Of a DNA stretch of 64,000 nt, positions 3,334 to 62,137 are shown in pieces. Source of the DNA: Escherichia phage vB_EcoM-ZQ1; sequence record MW650886.1; one strand, written 5' to 3'. A model generated the notes under the pieces. The model made no database searches. It had not been told where the DNA came from and saw only the letters and a list, made by a program, of their open reading frames with translations. Each line of letters begins with the position of its first letter. Position 1 is the stretch's first letter. A program made the position numbers and the translations under genes.

Positions 3334-3368
3334 CAATAAACAAAAGGAGCTGCTATTATAGCAGCCCC
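3334..3368 (-). terminator. intrinsic terminator
   Basis: GCTGCTA-TTA-TAGCAGC hairpin followed on the minus strand by TTTTGTTTATT. Confidence 0.5.
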
Positions 3369-3399
3369 TTCATCTATTGAACAGTTTCTGAACTTAAAT

Positions 3400-7237: not shown

Positions 7238-7257
7238 AAAGCCATCCGAAGATGGCT
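7229..7257. terminator. intrinsic terminator between convergent genes (gene 32 and the 6293 gene)
   Basis: AGCCATC-CGAA-GATGGCT hairpin with a TTTTTATTTT tract on the minus strand; weaker T tract on the plus strand. Confidence 0.55.
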
Positions 7258-7263
7258 TGTTGA

Positions 7264-8274
7264 TCAGTTAGACTTGAGATACTGCTCGAATTCGTCAATG
7301 GAAGCCGTGTTTCTGGCATTCGGTTGAGCCTGAGCCTGCGACGGCGCGGCCTGTTGCTGTTTCAGGCTGTCTTGAGCAGTTGGCTGATGTGTAGTCTGGG
7401 TGCTAGGAGCATGAGCCATCGTGGCTGCACCACCTTCAACCAGAGGCTGGTCATCAGGGATTGCCAAAACTTTGCGCAGGCGCTTTTCCAGGGAGTCGTA
7501 GTCTTTGAAGTTAGCCGGATTGAAGAATTCAAACAGGCTGTGCTCGCGAGACCAGACGTCTTCCATATACGCTTCGTCATCACTCAGAGGGGCAGGGTTC
7601 TCCCACACCACCTTACTGAAGTTTGCCACCAGACCTTCCCAGTTCCCAAACTTCTTCTGCTCGCCAAAGAGCTTCAGGTTCAGGTTGGCACCTTCCCACA
7701 GATCGAACGGATCGAATTTAGGGTCGGTTGGGAACTTAGGATTCTGCGCCTGATCCAGGATTTTCTTGATGGCGTTACCAAATTCCAGCAGGAAGACCTT
7801 GCCGTTGTTTTCCGGTACGTTGACATCTTTGATCACCAGGATGTTAGCGTAGTATTTGGTGTCGGGTAGACGTTTCTTCAGGATGTCCTTCAGCTTTTCG
7901 TCGTTCGTTTCTTTCTGCTGTGTCCACAGCGGACGGTCATGGTCGCGCACCGGATCGTCGTTACCGAACGTCTGAGGTGAGTTCTCAATGTACCATCCAC
8001 CAGGTCCCTGGAACTGATGTTTCATGATCATGGCACAAGGGGTGAGGATCTGATCTTTATCGATCGTCCCTTCTTCCTGTGCCTTGAGGTCTACCAGCGG
8101 GACTGGCAGGAAGCGGATGATGTTCTCGGAGATACCATCTTTATTCCAAGTCCATTTCCAGATGCGAGGATCCTTCTGGAAACCGGACTTCTGGCCTTGC
8201 TGTGCAAGACGCGCCTGCATAGCTTCAGTTTGCTGGCCACGGGACGCTTTCAGACGATCGAATAAATTACCCAT
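7264..8274 (-). CDS. 32: single-stranded DNA-binding protein (T4 gp32-like)
   Basis: 336 aa; IRFLPVP, WYIE, YANILVIKD..PENNGKVFLLEFG and WEGANL match T4 gp32 (IRFLPS, WYIE, YIANILVVKD..PENEGKVFKYRFG, WEGANF); acidic Gln/Ala-rich C-terminus. Confidence 0.8.
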   Translation of the reverse strand: MGNLFDRLKASRGQQTEAMQARLAQQGQKSGFQKDPRIWKWTWNKDGISENIIRFLPVPLVDLKAQEEGTIDKDQILTPCAMIMKHQFQGPGGWYIENSPQTFGNDDPVRDHDRPLWTQQKETNDEKLKDILKKRLPDTKYYANILVIKDVNVPENNGKVFLLEFGNAIKKILDQAQNPKFPTDPKFDPFDLWEGANLNLKLFGEQKKFGNWEGLVANFSKVVWENPAPLSDDEAYMEDVWSREHSLFEFFNPANFKDYDSLEKRLRKVLAIPDDQPLVEGGAATMAHAPSTQTTHQPTAQDSLKQQQAAPSQAQAQPNARNTASIDEFEQYLKSN

Positions 8275-8342
8275 TTCTTGTTTTCCTATGTTTCCGCCCC
8301 TCAGGGCTATTCTGTTACATGTATTTTCAGTTTTCTACAAAG

Positions 8343-8360
8343 CGGGGTAATTATACCCCG
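8343..8360 (-). promoter_or_regulatory. 5' UTR hairpin of gene 32 (candidate translational operator structure)
   Basis: CGGGGTA-ATTA-TACCCCG hairpin followed on the mRNA by about 35 nt of AU-rich sequence before the SD. Confidence 0.4.
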
Positions 8361-8373
8361 ATCTTATATTGAA

Positions 8374-8613
8374 TTAACCTTTAAGCACTTGATTTGCTGG
8401 GTCAATTTCAATAATGTCGAACACGTCCGAAAACGTCTTCTTACCTTCGTCGTGCGTGTGATACTCAACGACATATGAGCGACCATCAGGGGTAACGTAA
8501 CGAATACGATCCGTCTGGTCGGCATTCTCGTTCAGACTACCCACACGCCAGCGCATGGAGCCAGGAAGGAACTCGGAGGCTTTCATTGCGCTGTAAATTG
8601 ATTCTTTGCTCAT
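8374..8613 (-). CDS. hypothetical protein
   Basis: 79 aa minus-strand ORF in the gene array. Confidence 0.4.
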   Translation of the reverse strand: MSKESIYSAMKASEFLPGSMRWRVGSLNENADQTDRIRYVTPDGRSYVVEYHTHDEGKKTFSDVFDIIEIDPANQVLKG

Positions 8614-8620
8614 AATAGAC

Positions 8621-8866
8621 CTACACTAATTTCTTGGACTTTAGCGCGTCTTTGATCAGGCGCGCATCGGAGCACTCAGCTGTCAATCGTGACAACAATG
8701 GTGCTGTAATCATCTTTTTGACTTTGGTCTCGTCTATGTCGTTCTCTTCACAGACAGATGCCAGAGTCTCAAGGATACTATCCTTGGTTTGGGCGGCGCG
8801 TAGTAGGACGATTTCAGAAAATAATTCTGGTGTCATCACAAGCGCTGGCTGTTTTTCGTCAGACAT
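8621..8866 (-). CDS. hypothetical protein
   Basis: 81 aa minus-strand ORF. Confidence 0.4.
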   Translation of the reverse strand: MSDEKQPALVMTPELFSEIVLLRAAQTKDSILETLASVCEENDIDETKVKKMITAPLLSRLTAECSDARLIKDALKSKKLV

Positions 8867-9405: not shown

Positions 9406-9992
9406 ATACCTCTGTTGAAGTCTGGATTATTCTCAATGAAGTAAGAGCCACAAGCCATTATCGCAAACGAATCCACGAGGTCATCGATTGGCTTGGGATC
9501 CTTAACTTCCAACATATCCATTATACCGCGCATGCTAACATTGAACAGCGACTCGAAGTGAGCGATCATGGCGTGTTTATCCGCGTTGCCCTTGTCGGTG
9601 AACATCTTCTTCACATGGGATGGCGTCACGATCTGGAAGTCGAAATTGTTACGGCGCAGGGCTTGCTTCAATAGTGAGGTATTCTCTGCGGTCTGGCATA
9701 TGTTGTTGGAGTTCTTAGAGTTGCCCATAGCATACCCTTCAAGAGCGATCGCATCCGGCTTCTCAGTCAACAGAACAGCCTCAGCCCATTTACAGATATT
9801 ATAGAAGCGTTCTTCTGGGGTCTCCCACTTCGGTTGCTTCATGATAAGGATGTTCTGACGAATCTGAGTGCAATACTTCTCCACAGTATAATATGCGTAG
9901 AAGCGCAGATGATCAAAATCAAGAGGGTCTTTATCATCCCAGAAGCACAGGGATGGACAGCCATAGGAGTAGTCGATTCCGCAATATTTCAT
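9402..9992 (-). CDS. RuvC-like Holliday junction resolvase
   Basis: N-terminal MKYCGIDYSYG (RuvC GIDPG-like) and C-terminal DDLVDSFAIMACG (RuvC D..AD.LAIA-like); listed start is TTG, re-set to the internal ATG. Confidence 0.5.
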   Translation of the reverse strand: MKYCGIDYSYGCPSLCFWDDKDPLDFDHLRFYAYYTVEKYCTQIRQNILIMKQPKWETPEERFYNICKWAEAVLLTEKPDAIALEGYAMGNSKNSNNICQTAENTSLLKQALRRNNFDFQIVTPSHVKKMFTDKGNADKHAMIAHFESLFNVSMRGIMDMLEVKDPKPIDDLVDSFAIMACGSYFIENNPDFNRGI

Positions 9993-10535: not shown

Positions 10536-11037
10536 TACTTTTCTCCAGTTCATAATCGCGCTCCACAACGTATTGGTAGACACGCATCTTAATATAGTCA
10601 GCACTGCCTGCTGAAGACAGCACCATCCATCCACTACTAAGGGCATTCATCTTATATTGACCAACACCCTCTTGAAAATAACTTTTAATCTGTTCTAGCT
10701 TTCGAACACGATGATAATACGAGATGAGTTCGCCGATGACAATACAATCTGGATAATGCTTTTCCAATGTATTGATGTTGCGGTGAACATATACGGGTAG
10801 AACTTCTTCATCGTCGATAGGGCTGTAGTATGGGTCTACGATGACCACTTGTAGACCATAACGCAGCAGGTCTTTGACACCCAGCCGACAGAACTTATAA
10901 TCTTCGTGTTTCATTGCCACATGGAGGATATTCTCTTTCTTGGCATAATCGGTCAGGAAGATAAAGAAGTCTGTGTTGGGATCGGGATATTGTATAGACA
11001 GTTCTTTGCCTATTTCACTAAAACAAAATCCGCGCAT
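10513..11037 (-). CDS. hypothetical protein
   Basis: About 174 aa; start MRGFCF chosen for SD spacing; divergent from the plus-strand gene at 11087. Confidence 0.45.
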   Translation of the reverse strand: MRGFCFSEIGKELSIQYPDPNTDFFIFLTDYAKKENILHVAMKHEDYKFCRLGVKDLLRYGLQVVIVDPYYSPIDDEEVLPVYVHRNINTLEKHYPDCIVIGELISYYHRVRKLEQIKSYFQEGVGQYKMNALSSGWMVLSSAGSADYIKMRVYQYVVERDYELEKSNAKRKTR

Positions 11038-14089: not shown

Positions 14090-14470
14090 ATGAAAGAGTA
14101 TAAAGATGTCGATCTGAAGTTCGGCATGCATCCAGTGACCAAAGATGTCACCATGAAATCAGGTGTGTATGCTGTCTTACAATCCGTGCGGAATATCGTC
14201 ATGTCTTCAGTCGGGGACTGGCCCACTTATCCTGGGATCGGCGCGGGGCTTTATGGGCTGCTGGGTGAAAACACGACACCGACTATCCAGGTAGATGTGA
14301 AGAACAAAGTAGAGGACGCCATCGCCCTGTATGAACCCAGAGCAGAGGTAGAAGAAGTCACGGTGAGTCTGTCAGAGGATTACCACTCTCTGGGCGTGAC
14401 CATCACATTCTATGTGGTCAACAATCCAGATCCAATAACAGACACCGTGTGGTTGAAAAGGACGAATTAG
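14090..14470 (+). CDS. baseplate wedge protein (T4 gp25 / GPW family)
   Basis: 126 aa; YEPR and NPDPI motifs and size match gp25; directly downstream of the gp5-like gene. Confidence 0.7.
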   Translation: MKEYKDVDLKFGMHPVTKDVTMKSGVYAVLQSVRNIVMSSVGDWPTYPGIGAGLYGLLGENTTPTIQVDVKNKVEDAIALYEPRAEVEEVTVSLSEDYHSLGVTITFYVVNNPDPITDTVWLKRTN

Positions 14471-15019: not shown

Positions 15020-15068
15020 GATATAGTTCCCGCTTTCAATTTGTGGCGAATGCCAATGAATTACTGGG

Positions 15069-15097
15069 AAGTATAAGCGCAGGGATTATAGAAGTAA
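15069..15097 (-). promoter_or_regulatory. early promoter (-35 TTTACT, 17 nt, -10 TATACT) abutting a hairpin
   Basis: GGGGCTTTACTTCT...TATACTTC; same architecture as the cassettes at 27987 and 61083. Confidence 0.5.
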
Positions 15098-15117
15098 AGC
15101 CCCTCAATGAGGGGCTT
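15095..15117 (-). terminator. hairpin after nrdH (terminator element of a promoter-hairpin cassette)
   Basis: AAAGCCCCTCATTGAGGGGCTTT inverted repeat immediately followed by the TTTACT -35. Confidence 0.45.
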
Positions 15118-15124
15118 TGGCTTG

Positions 15125-21733: not shown

Positions 21734-21806
21734 GATGTAATTCCTCATAATGTAGTTGGTGCGTTTCACTTTTCATTCGGCGGTGTGTTGCCGCCCTATG
21801 TGAACT

Positions 21807-21835
21807 ATAATAGTGCATCATTATTGAAGAGTAAA
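21807..21835 (-). promoter_or_regulatory. early promoter (-35 TTTACT, 17 nt, -10 TATTAT)
   Basis: TTTACTCTTCAATAATGATGCACTATTAT upstream of the 21245..21733 gene. Confidence 0.45.
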
Positions 21836-21867
21836 GTCTTTTTCAATAATTTTTAAAAATTATTTTT

Positions 21868-21901
21868 GAAGTATTTTAAAAGGCCTCGTCGAATGAGGCC
21901 T
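21868..21901 (-). terminator. intrinsic terminator
   Basis: AGGCCTC-GTCGAAT-GAGGCCT hairpin followed by TTTTAAAATAC on the minus strand. Confidence 0.5.
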
Positions 21902-21929
21902 GGAGGGAAGTAATGTGAAGTAAAAAGTT

Positions 21930-27938: not shown

Positions 27939-27986
27939 GATATAGTTCCTGCTTTTCAAGTTGGTGTCGTACTGCTTATGGAATGA

Positions 27987-28015
27987 AGTATAGGAAAGGA
28001 TATTGAAGAAGTAAA
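27987..28015 (-). promoter_or_regulatory. early promoter (-35 TTTACT, 17 nt, -10 TATACT) within a promoter-hairpin cassette
   Basis: TTTACTTCTTCAATATCCTTTCCTATACTTCATTCCATAAGCAG, near-identical to the cassette at 61083. Confidence 0.5.
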
Positions 28016-28031
28016 GGGGCGAAAGCCCCTT
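28014..28031 (-). terminator. hairpin (terminator element of a promoter-hairpin cassette)
   Basis: AAGGGGC-GAAA-GCCCCTT; T-rich on both sides. Confidence 0.45.
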
Positions 28032-28044
28032 TTATTGAATTATT

Positions 28045-28683
28045 TTACGGCGTCGGATTCACAACCGGAATGTGGGATCGAATACCTGCGATGATGTCCT
28101 TCAGCCGAGGATTCCATCCACCCACCAAACGGGGGAGAGCGATAGCGCCAGGCTGGACCAAAATGATGTCGCTGCCTGTGATATTGTGCTGAGGGAACTG
28201 AGCAAGGTACTGCTCCATGGCGACACCCTCATCAATCAGAACAGGACCGACATCAGATGACGCGTAGGTTGCACCCAGACCGTCAACGCCCCATGCCAAG
28301 ATACCCCAGTCAGGGATGTTGGCTTCAGATGTGATGGTGAATCCAAACACGGTGTTCAGCGAAGTAAAGGAATAGACATCGTGGGTGATGTCATACACCA
28401 GATACCCCTTGGCCAGCATATCGGCAAAGATCGCGTCCGTATCGCCAACAGCCGGAGTCGGCACAGTAAACAACAGCTCGCCATCAGGAGGAGCAGGATA
28501 CGTGCCGAGGGCATAGAGGCACCATGCATCAATGCACTTCTTAATGAACGCCTCTGGCGCGACATAATCAGCAAGGCGAACCGTACCTGAGTACTCTGAT
28601 ACGATAATGCCTTCCTTCGCACCCTGTAGAGCAATGAAGACCAAGATATGTTCATATCCGGCCTGAGATGGAGTGATGTTCAT
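28045..28683 (-). CDS. hypothetical protein
   Basis: Start re-set to MNITPSQ (TAATG overlap with the upstream gene). Confidence 0.45.
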   Translation of the reverse strand: MNITPSQAGYEHILVFIALQGAKEGIIVSEYSGTVRLADYVAPEAFIKKCIDAWCLYALGTYPAPPDGELLFTVPTPAVGDTDAIFADMLAKGYLVYDITHDVYSFTSLNTVFGFTITSEANIPDWGILAWGVDGLGATYASSDVGPVLIDEGVAMEQYLAQFPQHNITGSDIILVQPGAIALPRLVGGWNPRLKDIIAGIRSHIPVVNPTP

Positions 28684-39038: not shown

Positions 39039-39094
39039 GATATAGTCACTCAAATGAAAGGGCAGCTTTATGATAAGCCGCCCGAGGTTATTGA

Positions 39095-41013: not shown

Positions 41014-41092
41014 GGCGATTCTCCTTATTTCATTGGATGAAATGATAGGCGGCTCACCATGATGAGTAAAGGGATTCAATAAACTATCGTAT

Positions 41093-42393: not shown

Positions 42394-42445
42394 GATATAG
42401 TCTCTTGGTTTCAAATGGGCGGGGTATGATTACCCCGCCGTGGGT

Positions 42446-42952: not shown

Positions 42953-43011
42953 GATATAGTTCCTGCATTTCAAATAGACGGGGTAATCATACCCCGCCCA
43001 AAGTTATAGAA

Positions 43012-43251: not shown

Positions 43252-43302
43252 GATATAATCTTACCTTTCAACCCGGTGAACCCATCGTTCGCCAGTTATT
43301 GA

Positions 43303-43331
43303 ATAATAGGACATTCCTTAGAGGAAGTAAA
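43303..43331 (-). promoter_or_regulatory. early promoter (-35 TTTACT, 17 nt, -10 TATTAT) after a repeat hairpin
   Basis: GGGGTTTACTTCCTCTAAGGAATGTCCTATTAT. Confidence 0.45.
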
Positions 43332-43367
43332 CCCCTAAAAGTAAAAATCCCCAACGTTTGTTGGGGA
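43324..43367. repeat. 44-bp direct repeat, copy 1 (contains an 11-bp-stem hairpin)
   Basis: GAAGTAAACCCCTAAAAGTAAAAATCCCCAACGTTTGTTGGGGA, identical to 43683..43726. Confidence 0.7.
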
Positions 43368-43384
43368 TTTAATAAAAGTTATGC

Positions 43385-43609
43385 CTATTTAATTTCTCGG
43401 CTTGAATTTTCTAGTTCTAATTTTCTTATAGCAGAAATTCTGCCTTCATCAGTTGCGGGAAACTCCCAAACAGCACGACGCCCGTTGTTGGTATCACAAC
43501 TTGCCAGCCAGCAGAAATTAGAGGGGTCCTTAAACAAGACCAATTTAGGGTTAGCAATATTGTTCAGGCAAAATGGGGTGAGGTCAACAACACATGATAT
43601 AGCAGACAT
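43385..43609 (-). CDS. hypothetical protein
   Basis: 74 aa; promoter-hairpin cassette upstream. Confidence 0.4.
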   Translation of the reverse strand: MSAISCVVDLTPFCLNNIANPKLVLFKDPSNFCWLASCDTNNGRRAVWEFPATDEGRISAIRKLELENSSREIK

Positions 43610-43668
43610 AATATATACCTTCTTTCAATGAACGGGAACGCCCCGCTCTATGAATTCAATAATACGCA

Positions 43669-43697
43669 TTTACATTATAGAAGTAAACCCCTAAAAG
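43669..43697 (-). promoter_or_regulatory. early promoter (-35 TTTACT, 17 nt, -10 TATTAT) after a repeat hairpin
   Basis: GGGGTTTACTTCTATAATGTAAATGCGTATTAT. Confidence 0.45.
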
Positions 43698-43726
43698 TAA
43701 AAATCCCCAACGTTTGTTGGGGACTT
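43683..43726. repeat. 44-bp direct repeat, copy 2
   Basis: Identical 44-mer 359 bp downstream of copy 1; each copy precedes a small gene. Confidence 0.7.
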
Positions 43727-43729
43727 CTG

Positions 43730-46296: not shown

Positions 46297-46459
46297 CGTT
46301 ATTGCCTTCTTCAGGGTTGTCTTCGGCCTCACCTTCCGGCTTGGCCAGCATATATTCAAGGAAGTCGCGATTGAGTTCAATCTGACTCATCAGCGTTTCG
46401 CTCGGTTTAAAGCTGAGGTCGATGGTGTCTAGACCAGCTTTCTTGAATGGTTCTGTCAT
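46289..46459 (-). CDS. small acidic hypothetical ORF (56 aa)
   Basis: Hand translation MTEPFKKAGLDTIDLSFKPSETLMSQIELNRDFLEYMLAKPEGEAEDNPEEGNNDD; stop overlaps the vWA start; below the ORF-track cutoff. Confidence 0.25.
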   Translation of the reverse strand: MTEPFKKAGLDTIDLSFKPSETLMSQIELNRDFLEYMLAKPEGEAEDNPEEGNNDD

Positions 46460-46552
46460 GGTTAGTCGACCTTCACTTCAGTAACACCAGGTATTTCACG
46501 GACATGGGCCAGGCCTCTGTTTGTTAGTCATGGCGTATTATACTGCGAAGGG

Positions 46553-46798
46553 TTAATTGAAACGCCCAGCATTTACGCTGGACGTTATTGATATTGAAAA
46601 GGTTTTGACAAACTCAGGATTTGGAGGAAGCACCCTTCCATGTCTGCCGTCGCCATGGGCATGGCAACCGACACGGGCATCACATGGAGTGCACACCCAG
46701 AACTTCAGATTGCGGAGGTCAGGGCGATGAGGGTAGAGAACATCACCACCGACGAATTCGGCTGGGAGGCCACAGTAATCACATATAACAGGTTTCAT
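46553..46798 (-). CDS. zinc-ribbon protein
   Basis: CDYCG...CTPCDARVGCH; start MKPVICDY chosen because the longer listed ORF begins inside the upstream terminator hairpin. Confidence 0.4.
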   Translation of the reverse strand: MKPVICDYCGLPAEFVGGDVLYPHRPDLRNLKFWVCTPCDARVGCHAHGDGRHGRVLPPNPEFVKTFSISITSSVNAGRFN

Positions 46799-49293: not shown

Positions 49294-49407
49294 GATGTAA
49301 TCTTCCTGTTTCAGTTCAAATGTGCGCCCCGTTTGCCAGGGCGCTTCGTTTAAGTGAGGTCAATATACGCTGGATTGAGTTATTGAAGAACGAAGTAAAG
49401 GGAATCT

Positions 49408-50628
49408 TTATTCAGGTTTCTTCAAACGGTCCAGCAAATTGACGGAACCACGTTTGAGCACGACTTCATCACAGCGCTTTTTGTATTCCCCACCGCCGTC
49501 ATATCCAACCTTCCCGCGCGGTTTTTTACCTTGCTGTATGGCCTCTACACAACGAGTATATTTCGACAATTCACAAAAGTGGTTTTCTAATTGTTGAACA
49601 TTCATACACTGATCCCAAGGCTCTTCCGCAGACCAAAATTCTTCCCTGTTATACCCAAGAGGGCCATAAACCGCGTCCTGATTGTCCCGCAACCAGAAGA
49701 TGCATTCTTCATGCGTCATGCCATCTTTGTCCTGGAACATCAGGTCGATCCCTGCGCGACAGCCTGGTCCAGCAACCGTGAAGTGGTTCTCACTGAAAGG
49801 ATATTCAGGAATGTAAGTGAAGTCAACCCATATCTGATAGGCCAGGAATGGGCCAAGCCCTTCGATGTCGTCATACATGCGCTGGTATACTTCCAAAGGA
49901 GTACCAAGGCGCAGCAGGTCATGGAAATAATTTGGATACTTGTTGACGAATGCCTTCAGGGAGCGGATGACACGCATTGGCATGTACGGTTCCCAACCTT
50001 CGATGGTGTAGAAGTCCGGCTCTGCTTCGGCTATCGCCTTGGCTTCTTTATAATCCATGTTCTGGGTTGAACCGTCTTTACAGATCAGATTCACCATCAT
50101 CCCACCGAAGCGCTGCTCCTTGTGGTTGACAACCATCTCAGGGAAAGCCAGGCATTGCTTCAGGCCGCCCGTGTTGAAGGCATTGGTGAATACCTTACCA
50201 CCGTCGGCCTCGAACTTCTGAAGTCGTTCGCGGGTTGCATCGAGGTTGATCTCGGCGAATTCTTTGATCGTCATCGCGCCGCCGATAGCCTGGATTGGAT
50301 CCCAGAGGTTGAACATGCGGAACAACACGCAGTTGAACATCTTGTCGGCCATACCCAGAGCATCATTCTTGGCGATGTTGTTGATCAGGTTGAGAGACTG
50401 CCTGTCGTGCTCTCTCCGGACGTTACAGAATTTAACCTGGCGTAGTATGGGATTATCAGTCCAAGGAGCAGGAAGGCGCTGGACGTCCTTCTTGACGTGG
50501 ATCTGATAACGATCGCGCATCCATTCGTAAGACAGGCGGGTATGGGTCGGGCTGAGAACCGGTTTGGCCGACTTTATCTTTTCTTCACGGACACCGCAGT
50601 ACGGGACGTCCAGGGCTTTATCTTTCAT
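49408..50628 (-). CDS. hypothetical protein (406 aa)
   Basis: AAGAGGA SD; terminator hairpin just upstream. Confidence 0.55.
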   Translation of the reverse strand: MKDKALDVPYCGVREEKIKSAKPVLSPTHTRLSYEWMRDRYQIHVKKDVQRLPAPWTDNPILRQVKFCNVRREHDRQSLNLINNIAKNDALGMADKMFNCVLFRMFNLWDPIQAIGGAMTIKEFAEINLDATRERLQKFEADGGKVFTNAFNTGGLKQCLAFPEMVVNHKEQRFGGMMVNLICKDGSTQNMDYKEAKAIAEAEPDFYTIEGWEPYMPMRVIRSLKAFVNKYPNYFHDLLRLGTPLEVYQRMYDDIEGLGPFLAYQIWVDFTYIPEYPFSENHFTVAGPGCRAGIDLMFQDKDGMTHEECIFWLRDNQDAVYGPLGYNREEFWSAEEPWDQCMNVQQLENHFCELSKYTRCVEAIQQGKKPRGKVGYDGGGEYKKRCDEVVLKRGSVNLLDRLKKPE

Positions 50629-50640
50629 GGTATCCTCTTA

Positions 50641-50673
50641 GAATACGAAAACAGAGGCCATTATAGCCTCTGT
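50641..50673 (-). terminator. intrinsic terminator (loop contains TATAAT)
   Basis: ACAGAGGC-CATTATA-GCCTCTGT followed by TTTTCGTATTC. Confidence 0.5.
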
Positions 50674-50696
50674 TGTTTAGTGAATAACCGTATATC

Positions 50697-53493: not shown

Positions 53494-53576
53494 CATTTCA
53501 GCCTCGTGTAGAAGAATCATTTCAAATAGGCGGGGAACGCCCCGCCCACACATTATAGCATCAGGCTGGAGATTGA

Positions 53577-62074: not shown

Positions 62075-62137
62075 GGTACAACCCTCGGATAGTAGACGGG
62101 GCAATAATACCTCTCGCCCCGTTATTGAAATGTTCTT

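Follow-up and report, generated by a model that had tools for sequence, protein, structure and literature searches.

We propose, at a probability of roughly 0.6, that the 99-nt intergenic region 8275-8373 is a transcriptional and post-transcriptional control region of gene 32, in which a promoter of a type shared across the phage family would be interleaved with a GC-rich hairpin and followed by a leader of about 69 nt. All functional statements made here are drawn from sequence, conservation and analogy with known systems, and "the window" denotes the whole stretch of 64,000 nucleotides of Escherichia phage vB_EcoM-ZQ1 that was analysed. The phage belongs to the family Ackermannviridae. Its gp32 is 99.7% identical to that of Escherichia phage AV101, and the gp32 region shares 97-98% identity with Escherichia phages A221, LHE287 and AV101, 91-94% with Shigella phage Ag3 and its relatives, and 88% with Dickeya LIMEstone-type phages. 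The earlier note on this DNA had called the gp32 gene correctly, as confirmed by a profile match (Pfam PF08804, E 2e-56). The genes around the control region are as follows.

7264..8274, minus strand: gene 32, encoding the gp32 single-strand DNA-binding protein of 336 aa (Pfam PF08804, E 2.3e-56).
8374..8613, minus strand: ORF of 79 aa (orf79; PHROG 4100), co-directional with and upstream of gene 32.
8621-8866: gp33, upstream of orf79.

The orf79 gene is kept between gp33 and gp32 in all relatives examined, and the phage encodes both gp55 and gp33. The papers on Ag3 and LIMEstone and the corresponding GenBank records hold no annotation upstream of gene 32, and no map of transcript 5' or 3' ends for any Ackermannviridae phage was found in the literature searched. 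On the minus (mRNA) strand, the elements of the region follow one another in the order stop codon, TTCAAT, 12 nt to TATAAT, hairpin 1, AU-rich tract, small hairpin, Shine-Dalgarno sequence (SD) and ATG. The TAA stop codon of orf79 lies immediately 5' of the TCAAT box, and the gp32 ATG at 8274 directly abuts the intergenic region 8373-8275, which contains the following features.

8373-8361, minus strand: TTCAAT-ATAAGAT, the box and the start of the spacer.
8368..8373, minus strand: TTCAAT box, the putative element at about -30 of the gene 32 promoter, 12 nt 5' of TATAAT (from TCAAT conservation, the published motif and enrichment).
8343..8360, minus strand: hairpin 1, CGGGGTA-TAAT-TACCCCG, a stem of 7 bp (5 GC) that brackets the -10 (plus-strand letters CGGGGTAATTATACCCCG).
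8350..8355, minus strand: TATAAT, the predicted -10 hexamer, within the invariant block GTATAATTAC.
8341..8345, minus strand: predicted transcription start, about 7 nt past the -10, giving a leader of about 69 nt (from sigma70 geometry; compare phage T2).
8308..8342, minus strand: AU-rich tract CTTTGTAGAAAACTGAAAATACATGTAACAGAATA, 35 nt, 74% A+U and 49% A, predicted to be unpaired.
8307-8296, minus strand: small hairpin GCCC-TGAG-GGGC.
8293..8310, minus strand: gp32-specific module AUA-GCCC-UGAG-GGGC-GGA, with invariant stem and flanks and a variable loop.
8295-8275, minus strand: SD region GGAAACATAGGAAAACAAGAA, 21 nt, A-rich, predicted to be unpaired.
8284..8287, minus strand: Shine-Dalgarno sequence AGGA, 9 nt ahead of the ATG and in A-rich surroundings (GAGGA in relatives).

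Most of this anatomy had been anticipated. The three hairpins reported to carry TATAAT in or across the loop are real at the coordinates given for them, that at 8343-8360 exactly and the other two as the cores of longer stems, and the second small GC hairpin before the gp32 start is present at 8307-8296. The AU-rich stretch of about 35 nt also exists, but it had been placed after the second hairpin and actually sits between the two hairpins. Folding of the gene 32 leader, which had been suggested as a check, gave hairpin 1, the small hairpin and unpaired tracts, and no pseudoknot. The predicted leader is 42% A and folds less than its shuffles do, with a minimum free energy (MFE) of -7.4 kcal/mol against a shuffle mean of -10.1 (z +1.1).

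Conservation of the leader in relatives, on which the earlier proposal had been made to depend, takes the form of conserved blocks in 11 distinct leader sequences from the four genera Agtrevirus, Limestonevirus, Kuttervirus and Taipeivirus. The invariant blocks of this alignment are TAAnTCAAT, GTATAATTAC, ACAGAATAGCCC, GGGGCG and the SD. Between them lies variable AT-rich sequence that includes the spacer and the downstream part, and the 35-nt AU-rich tract differs between genera in both sequence and length. The TCAAT and TATAAT of gene 32, intergenic and on the gene strand, match the Ackermannviridae motif TTCAAT[N14]TATAAT, which the EspM4VN paper quotes as one of a pair of regulatory motifs found only in this group of phages (PMC7283392). 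Our sites resemble the motif in having the two boxes, conserved and intergenic, in the same direction as the gene that follows, and differ from it in their spacers, which are 12, 15 and 13 nt at gene 32 and at the two further hairpin sites (sites 2 and 3, described below) versus the published 14.

The pattern TTCAAT.{12,16}TAT[AT]AT is enriched about 100-fold over Markov simulations, occurring six times in the window versus 0.06 expected and 13 times in the AV101 genome versus 0.10 expected. In the window, all eight TCAAT-N12-16-TAT(A/T)AT sites share a strand with the non-structural genes and are found 31-240 nt upstream of a start codon; they precede gp32, nrdA, gp44, the thyA operon, the gp33 operon and others; the sites in AV101 also include rIIA and further genes. 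The following site lies upstream of gene 32 on the same strand.

9520..9545, minus strand: TTCAAT-N14-TATAAT inside a RuvC-like ORF, the likely promoter of the membrane/Zn-ribbon/gp33/orf79 operon.

Genome-wide, the spacer between box and TATAAT measures 14 nt at 11 of 17 sites, 15 nt at three, and 12, 13 and 16 nt at one each. N14 predominates whether or not a hairpin is present at the site, and the N14 sites share the consensus TTCAAT-AA-N8-GGGG-TAT(A/T)AT. The spacer is 14 nt in the Taipeivirus gp32 orthologues as well, and the 12 nt found at gene 32 here, against the usual 14, would be an odd tolerance for a rigid bipartite promoter, which counts against the promoter reading. A canonical -35 at 17-18 bp was sought and gave no consistent match. 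With a box at about -30 and a good -10, the geometry is like that of T4 middle promoters (Mot box plus -10) and unlike a -35/-10 pair. At the gp32 loop, TATAAT gives way to the T4 late consensus TATAAATA in Serratia phages (3M, phiMAM1 and Kevin), which also lack the TCAAT box; this replacement of TATAAT plus box by TATAAATA without the box would look like a switch of promoter type. Because the loop sequence gives way to the T4 late consensus in Serratia phages, and because the motif is conserved and enriched, we read TATAAT as a -10 element and consider this assignment probable.

Hairpin 1 is stable in RNA, where the 34-nt region folds at -13.9 kcal/mol (z -3.7 against dinucleotide shuffles), and as DNA (-7.3 kcal/mol, z -3.8). 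Of seven lineages, six keep a stem that brackets the -10 of gene 32, with arms that differ between lineages as follows.

Agtrevirus and Limestonevirus: CGGGGTA / TACCCCG.
Taipeivirus, two variants: GCGGGGGTA / TACTCCCGC and GGGGGTA / TACCCCC.
Erwinia Bue1: GCGGGAT / ATCCCGC.
Serratia: GCGGGTAT / ATATCCGC, extended in Kevin to TTGCGGG.. / ..CCGCAA.
Vibrio K368: GGGGTAT / ATGCCCC.
Kuttervirus (decayed): CGCAGTA / TACACCG.

Folding energies of the six kept stems run from -11.8 to -17.8 kcal/mol (z -2.2 to -5.7). Kuttervirus retains TATAAT and TCAAT, but its decayed stem folds at -2.8 kcal/mol (z -0.2). Within the four-genus alignment, 96% of the cells of hairpin 1 pair, and covariation amounts to one compensatory change, from C-G to G-C, seen in three sequences; in two Taipeivirus sequences the stem is longer by two pairs. 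The compensatory change, the stem extension and the different arms in each lineage thus provide the covariation across relatives for which a check had been proposed. An invariant 10-nt block of loop plus closing pairs within a covarying outer stem would also look like a protein-binding RNA hairpin. A conserved U-tract after the gene 32 hairpin was not found: the stem is followed by CUUUGUAG in the window, whereas relatives have CUGUAAAU, CUGUGAAA or CUACAAAC there. Since CUUUGUAG is a poor U-tract and is not conserved, termination cannot explain why the gene 32 hairpin is retained, even after the switch to TATAAATA, and this leaves room for a role at the DNA level.

Two further candidate functions of hairpin 1 were considered and rejected. 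A duplex of its 3' arm AAUUACCC with gp32 codons 1-4 GGGUAAUU, together with GAUCGG:UCGAUC, dominates the MFE structure of the 131-nt fold and might have been taken for a conserved structure that sequesters the ribosome-binding site (RBS). This long-range duplex is strong only in the window and in AV101 (-18.4 kcal/mol, z -3.3), is broken by a synonymous change in CAU_YEP3, and is missing in the Taipei, Erwinia and Serratia lineages. A terminator for the antisense strand was likewise set aside; the tails are only moderately T-rich, and a bidirectional terminator is already present at 7239-7258.

The gene 32 hairpin belongs to a recurrent arrangement, of which the window holds the following other cases.

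3343..3381, minus strand: site 2, TTCAAT-N15-TATAAT with a 13-bp hairpin (3371-3343) and the -10 in the loop (from the fold and conservation in four genera).
50650..50684, minus strand: site 3, TTCACT-N13-TATAAT with an 11-bp hairpin (50674-50650) and the -10 in the loop (from the fold and conservation).
42976..42999, minus strand: sibling hairpin GGGCGGGGTA-TGAT-TACCCCGTCT with the same core stem as hairpin 1, TATGAT in the loop and TTCTAT-N14 before it.
62096..62129, minus strand: TTCAAT-N14-TATTAT, with a stem ACGGGGC/GCCCCGT around the -10.

On the minus strand, the hairpin of site 2 reads GAAGGGGCTGCTA-TAA-TAGCAGCTCCTTT and continues into TGTTTATT. The T-run TTTTGTTTATT comes directly after the stem, and an SD (GGAG) and the start codon of an ORF resembling thymidylate kinase, itself located upstream of thyA, come next; the hairpin's core 3349-3365 is part of the 13-bp stem (-19.7 kcal/mol, z -5.8 against dinucleotide shuffles). 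The hairpin of site 3 reads AACAGAGGCTA-TAA-TGGCCTCTGTT and continues into TTCGTATTCT, with the T-run TTTTCGTATTCT directly after the stem and an SD and an ATG beyond it, and its core 50651-50673 is part of the 11-bp stem (-15.8 kcal/mol, z -5.4, again against dinucleotide shuffles). Each lies on the gene strand with a stop codon on one side and the next SD on the other, and each combines a GC-rich stem-loop with an immediate U-tract, as intrinsic terminators do. Both are kept in all four genera, T-runs included, and in Erwinia Bue1 the box, loop and T-run of site 3 keep this layout around a stem of unrelated sequence, GGGGAGC/GCTCCTC. From the conservation of sites 2 and 3, the covariation of their stems and their conserved T-runs, we infer that they are superimposed terminator/promoter cassettes, with putative promoter and terminator activity in one segment.

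TATAAT in a strict hairpin occurs two to three times in the window versus 0.07-0.09 expected, and four to five times in the AV101 genome versus 0.15 (Markov-1 simulations). About nine of the 18 box promoters of AV101 have the -10 in a hairpin loop, each directly 3' of the stop codon of a co-directional gene; at other members of the class, a GC hairpin wraps the box (nrdA) or comes after the -10 (gp44). A conserved T-run follows the hairpin also at AV101 positions 14205 and 17042. The idea that hairpins with TATAAT in the loop link a terminator to a -10 element is thus well supported by comparison, with an enriched co-directional motif, covarying stems and T-runs at two of the three hairpins. 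As a separate and anecdotal observation, some breakpoints between the window and AV101 adjoin cassettes (49415; 46300-46641), and one loop is inverted.

We envisage the following working of the gene 32 region. Promoters of the class, with a TTCAAT box, N12-16 and TAT(A/T)AT, would serve the pre-replicative genes rIIA, nrdA, gp44, gp33, thyA and gp32. A GC-rich inverted repeat would fill the spacer with its 5' arm and the discriminator with its 3' arm, which places TATAAT in the loop. The promoter-like site at 9545-9520 would feed the gp33/orf79 operon, and RNA polymerase arriving from this operon would transcribe both arms, so that its transcripts run into hairpin 1 and the hairpin forms. At sites 2 and 3, with their conserved T-runs, the hairpin would be expected to act as an intrinsic terminator of upstream transcripts. 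At gene 32, because no conserved T-run follows, it would be at most an attenuator, or would protect the 3' end of the gp33/orf79 message. The embedded promoter is predicted to start transcription about 7 nt past the -10, within or just after the 3' arm (around 8343); its RNA would lack the 5' arm, and thus neither form the hairpin nor terminate. The constraints on the two signals are complementary, stem and T-run for the terminator, box and loop for the promoter, which would allow them to be interleaved and to share about 45 bp. The resulting gene 32 mRNA leader of about 69 nt would be unstructured and A-rich except for the invariant small hairpin module.

The earlier note had further held that the layout matches the autogenous operator of T4 gene 32, and this comparison does not stand. 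In T4, a pseudoknot that starts some 67 nt before the AUG is followed by an unstructured, A+U-rich tract of UUAA(A) repeats that overlaps the RBS (PMC3014915). The T2 leader has TATAAATA and TATAAT, a pseudoknot at -67..-34 and then UUAAUUAAAUUAAAAAGGAAAUAAAA, with TATAAT ending 7 nt before the pseudoknot at -67. The region studied here shares with the T4/T2/RB69 operator (PMC3014915; PMC535899) a gene 32 leader of about 70 nt from the proximal promoter and a structure ahead of a long stretch, A/U-rich and weakly folded, extending to the RBS; in T2, TATAAT and TATAAATA immediately precede the structured element. The elements found here at 8373-8275 lie directly upstream of the gp32 ATG. It differs in several respects. 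Folding and enumeration of interleaved stems found no H-type pseudoknot in the leader, only hairpins with 4-nt loops, and the enumeration gave only 4-bp candidates that compete with the hairpins, with none in Kuttervirus. UUAA(A) repeats are absent from 8342-8275, while T2 and Vibrio K368 have them, and the predicted unpaired A+U tract (35 nt plus the A-rich 21 nt) is split by the invariant GC hairpin. Moreover, hairpin 1 overlaps the promoter, and with a predicted start at about 8343 it would probably be missing from gene 32's own transcript. Given the missing pseudoknot and UUAAA repeats, the split AU tract and a hairpin 1 outside the proximal transcript, the region cannot be counted among T4-type operators.

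A functional version of the same idea, in which gp32 would nucleate at the 5' structure formed by hairpin 1, spread cooperatively over the leader and its AU tract and so cover the RBS, is in our judgement very unlikely. It could appeal to a leader of about 69-86 nt with a 5' structure at -86..-69, akin to the T2/T4 pseudoknot, to the A-richness, weak folding and conservation of the region, and to read-through transcripts from upstream, which would include hairpin 1. Besides the structural differences, it has to contend with a loop that is accounted for by a promoter motif found at at least 17 other sites unrelated to gp32, with the loss of the stem but not of TATAAT in Kuttervirus, and with the same hairpin design in front of genes that gp32 has no reason to regulate. 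A different operator may nevertheless mediate autoregulation of gp32, given the long, A-rich, weakly folded leader and the gp32-specific small hairpin. The latter, AUAG-CCC-N4-GGG-CGGA, lies 22-33 nt before the AUG; its blocks ACAGAATAGCCC and GGGGCG are invariant across four genera with four loop variants, and neither the window nor the AV101 genome of 157 kb has a second intergenic copy. Serratia phages carry two copies and Erwinia Bue1 three, with stems GCCG/CGGC, GCC/GGC and CGGG/CCCG but unchanged flanks; the final copy overlaps the SD GGAG. We regard it as a better candidate than hairpin 1 for post-transcriptional control of gene 32. That the AUAG-stem-loop-CGGA module and its flanking A-rich single strand form a post-transcriptional element of a non-T4 type is a tentative suggestion, compatible with the promoter explanation; the module might serve gp32 or another repressor as an operator, or stabilise the 5' end once processing has exposed it. 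The conserved flanks and stem, the occurrence at gp32 only and the multiple copies in Serratia phages and Erwinia Bue1 favour such a role, as does the finding that the stability of T4 gene 32 mRNA is due to a 5' structure left by RNase E cleavage (PMC3014915). True covariation is scant, however, the stem being invariant within the four genera; the module has no match in Rfam, where permissive thresholds gave sub-threshold chance matches only, and it is absent from the Vibrio K368 gp32 leader. A scan of the collection for a mis-specified pattern ending in GCCCNNNNGGGGCG, where GGGCG was intended, gave no match and is uninformative.

The other alternatives concern the loop and the stem at the promoter itself. 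T4 gene 32 also has a late promoter, and TATAATTA at gene 32 matches the T4 late consensus TATAAATA at seven of eight positions. Late promoters of the T4 type have TATAAATA about 6 nt ahead of the start and require no box further upstream. Use of TATAATTA as a T4-type late promoter (gp55/gp33/gp45), alone or besides early or middle use, is a minor possibility. The phage encodes gp55 and gp33, TATAATTA occurs just once more in the window, 29 nt before the late gene gp26, the Serratia orthologues have the exact TATAAATA in the same place without the box, and T2 has TATAAATA and TATAATTA in tandem before gene 32. Yet late promoters do not feature an invariant box such as TCAAT at a set distance, and the sequences at sites 2 and 3, TATAATAG and TATAATGG, match the late consensus poorly. 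Alternatively, the inverted repeat might act on DNA, either as an extruded hairpin or cruciform with a single-stranded -10, as in the early promoters of phage N4, or as a binding site at which a dimeric repressor would cover the -10. In favour of this, the gene 32 hairpin persists where no U-tract follows and outlasts the change of promoter type, and DNA hairpins across the sites are stable (-7.3 to -10.6 kcal/mol, z -3.8 to -5.3). Against this, the stems are wholly different between sites and genera and thus offer no conserved site for a sequence-specific protein, they are short for cruciform extrusion, and the T-runs after several sites point to termination at the RNA level; we consider such a mode of action highly improbable. 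A more particular proposal is that the stem acts on the promoter as an extrudable DNA hairpin with its -10 single-stranded, which gp32 could sense in transcriptional autoregulation, and that the one to three copies of AUAG-stem-CGGA form a translational operator of gene 32 of a new kind, lacking a pseudoknot. A stem that is kept without a U-tract and survives the switch to TATAAATA would fit a promoter-acting extrudable hairpin, but the proposal as a whole remains doubtful. Chance pairing of AT-rich loops, which are frequent in hairpins, with GC stems is refuted by the 2-5 cases observed against 0.07-0.15 expected, by conservation across genera and by stem covariation. A family-type promoter interleaved with a hairpin stays our preferred reading of the gene 32 region.

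Several known systems resemble this arrangement in part. In phage N4, the single-subunit virion RNA polymerase of the phage recognises an extruded hairpin promoter itself. The sites described here share with the N4 promoters a short GC stem and a small loop at the promoter, and differ in having a sigma70-type -10 as the loop and in that a stem is absent from half of the class. The PeSL and PmSL of T4-like phages are short intergenic cassettes of a stem-loop (terminator), a promoter and an SD, with a -30 box paired with the -10 in PmSLs (PMC2839356, PMC4122927). The unit of intergenic stem-loop, promoter and SD found here is alike. In those cassettes the stem-loop is described as lying just upstream of the -35 or Mot box of the promoter (PMC4122927), whereas here the stem is interleaved with the promoter and the -10 lies in the loop; the box is TTCAAT and not TTGACA or a Mot box. 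The window also carries classical PeSL-like units, in which a hairpin is followed by TTTACT-N17-TATnnT. In the T4 genes e and soc, a late promoter lies inside the 5' strand of an inhibitory hairpin, and as here both arms are present only in upstream transcripts, so that transcripts from the embedded promoter escape the structure (PMC3014915). There the hairpin hides the RBS, whereas here it is terminator-like and lies 25-70 nt upstream of the RBS. The literature searched on the Ackermannviridae motif (PMC7283392) makes no mention of a GC stem bracketing the -10, which is found at about half of the sites. Comparative evidence supports the link between terminator and -10 as a conserved design throughout the family, one that would vary the known promoter-terminator cassettes and builds on a promoter motif already in print.

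Phages of the ViI, CBA120, LIMEstone, Ag3 and AV101 types find wide use in biocontrol and phage therapy, yet transcription in the Ackermannviridae is essentially unmapped. The results provide a testable regulatory grammar for this family, in which predicted TCAAT-box promoters precede pre-replicative genes and about half of them are interleaved with a terminator-type hairpin, an arrangement more compact than the PeSL cassettes of T4-like phages. It may aid annotation and engineering, for example in the design of insulated expression units of 60-75 bp. Conservation of the T4 gene 32 operator does not extend to this branch of the T4 superfamily, which has a different, gp32-specific RNA module in its place. 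For the long-standing question of gp32 regulation in phages other than the T-even ones, this module is a candidate answer.

In the strand carrying gene 32, the 3' arm of hairpin 1 (8345-8352), the stem-loop upstream of gp32 with a predicted TATAAT -10 element in or across its loop, is perfectly complementary over 8 bp to gp32 codons 1-4 (8265-8272). This pairing is lengthened by GAUCGG:UCGAUC and dominates the minimum free energy structure of a 131-nt fold; its conservation is confined to the closest relatives. At its other end gp32 runs towards gp54, and the two convergent genes are separated by AAGCCATC-TTCG-GATGGCTT (7239-7258), a bidirectional terminator that has a T-run on each strand and is annotated as such in the related phages Ag3 and LIMEstone1.

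The gp32 leader of Vibrio phage K368 (L012 770-900) keeps the TATAAT-loop hairpin and lacks the AUAG-stem-CGGA module, the small gp32-specific hairpin with conserved flanks, in whose stead UUAAA-type repeats (CUUAAAAUG, CUUAAAUUGAAAUUGA) occur within a long stem. The T4 operator is nearer in composition to this repeat-containing leader. Upstream of environmental T4-like gp32 genes (loci L032-L097; 33-40% identity), the preceding gene ends in TTGACA-N17-TA(t/g)AAT, with a spacer that often contains a small hairpin, e.g. TTGACAAAACAGGTTCCGACCTGTAGAAT, and the gp32 leaders contain repeated ACAAGCCAAAUC units.

The window contains several other signals. Exact TATAAATA late-type promoter sequences are found upstream of gp54 and two other genes, and TATAATTA, besides its copy at gene 32, occurs just once more in the window, 29 nt upstream of the late gene gp26 (baseplate hub). 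Also directed toward gp26 is a perfect sigma70 consensus, TTGACA-N16-TATAAT, at 10874-10901(+) within a minus-strand ORF. Classical units resembling PeSLs, the stem-loop terminator and promoter cassettes of T4-like phages, consist of a terminator hairpin whose T-run extends into TTTACT-N17-TAT(A/T)(A/C)T, identical to the consensus of T4/PST early promoters. Several small genes share the near-identical translation initiation region (A)GGAACTATATC-ATG.

Recurrent signals in the window
6251(+), 34875(+), 24212(-), 11051(+): late-type promoter sites, TATAAATA/TATAATTA
15020-15124, 21734-21929, 27939-28047, 41014-41092, 43252-43729: classical PeSL-like units
15020-15124, 27939-28047, 39039-39094, 42394-42445, 42953-43011: (A)GGAACTATATC-ATG initiation regions

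A GC-rich hairpin with (C/T)ATTTGAA(A/C) as its tail is repeated at 42394-42445, 42953-43011, 53497-53576 and 49294-49413 (minus sense). Since this tail is not a U-tract, the combination could mark a site of processing or be a signal specific to the phage.

Comparison with the close relative AV101 revealed an identical stem, GGCGGGGTA/TACCCCGCC, at window 42418-42439 and AV101 93811-93832, enclosing a 4-nt loop that is inverted between the two, TGAT in AV101 and ATCA in the window. The difference resembles a flip of the loop within an inverted repeat; with it, the window lacks the TATGAT -10-like hexamer. The genomes also differ in gene content: AV101 contains two segments that are absent from the window, one of 3.7 kb (97338-101040; window 46300-46641) with NAMPT, PRPP synthetase and small ORFs, the other of 1.27 kb (103815-105088; window 49415) with two ORFs. 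Both junctions adjoin cassettes of the family's TCAAT-box promoter motif, an arrangement that, by analogy, is reminiscent of PeSL-mediated shuffling.
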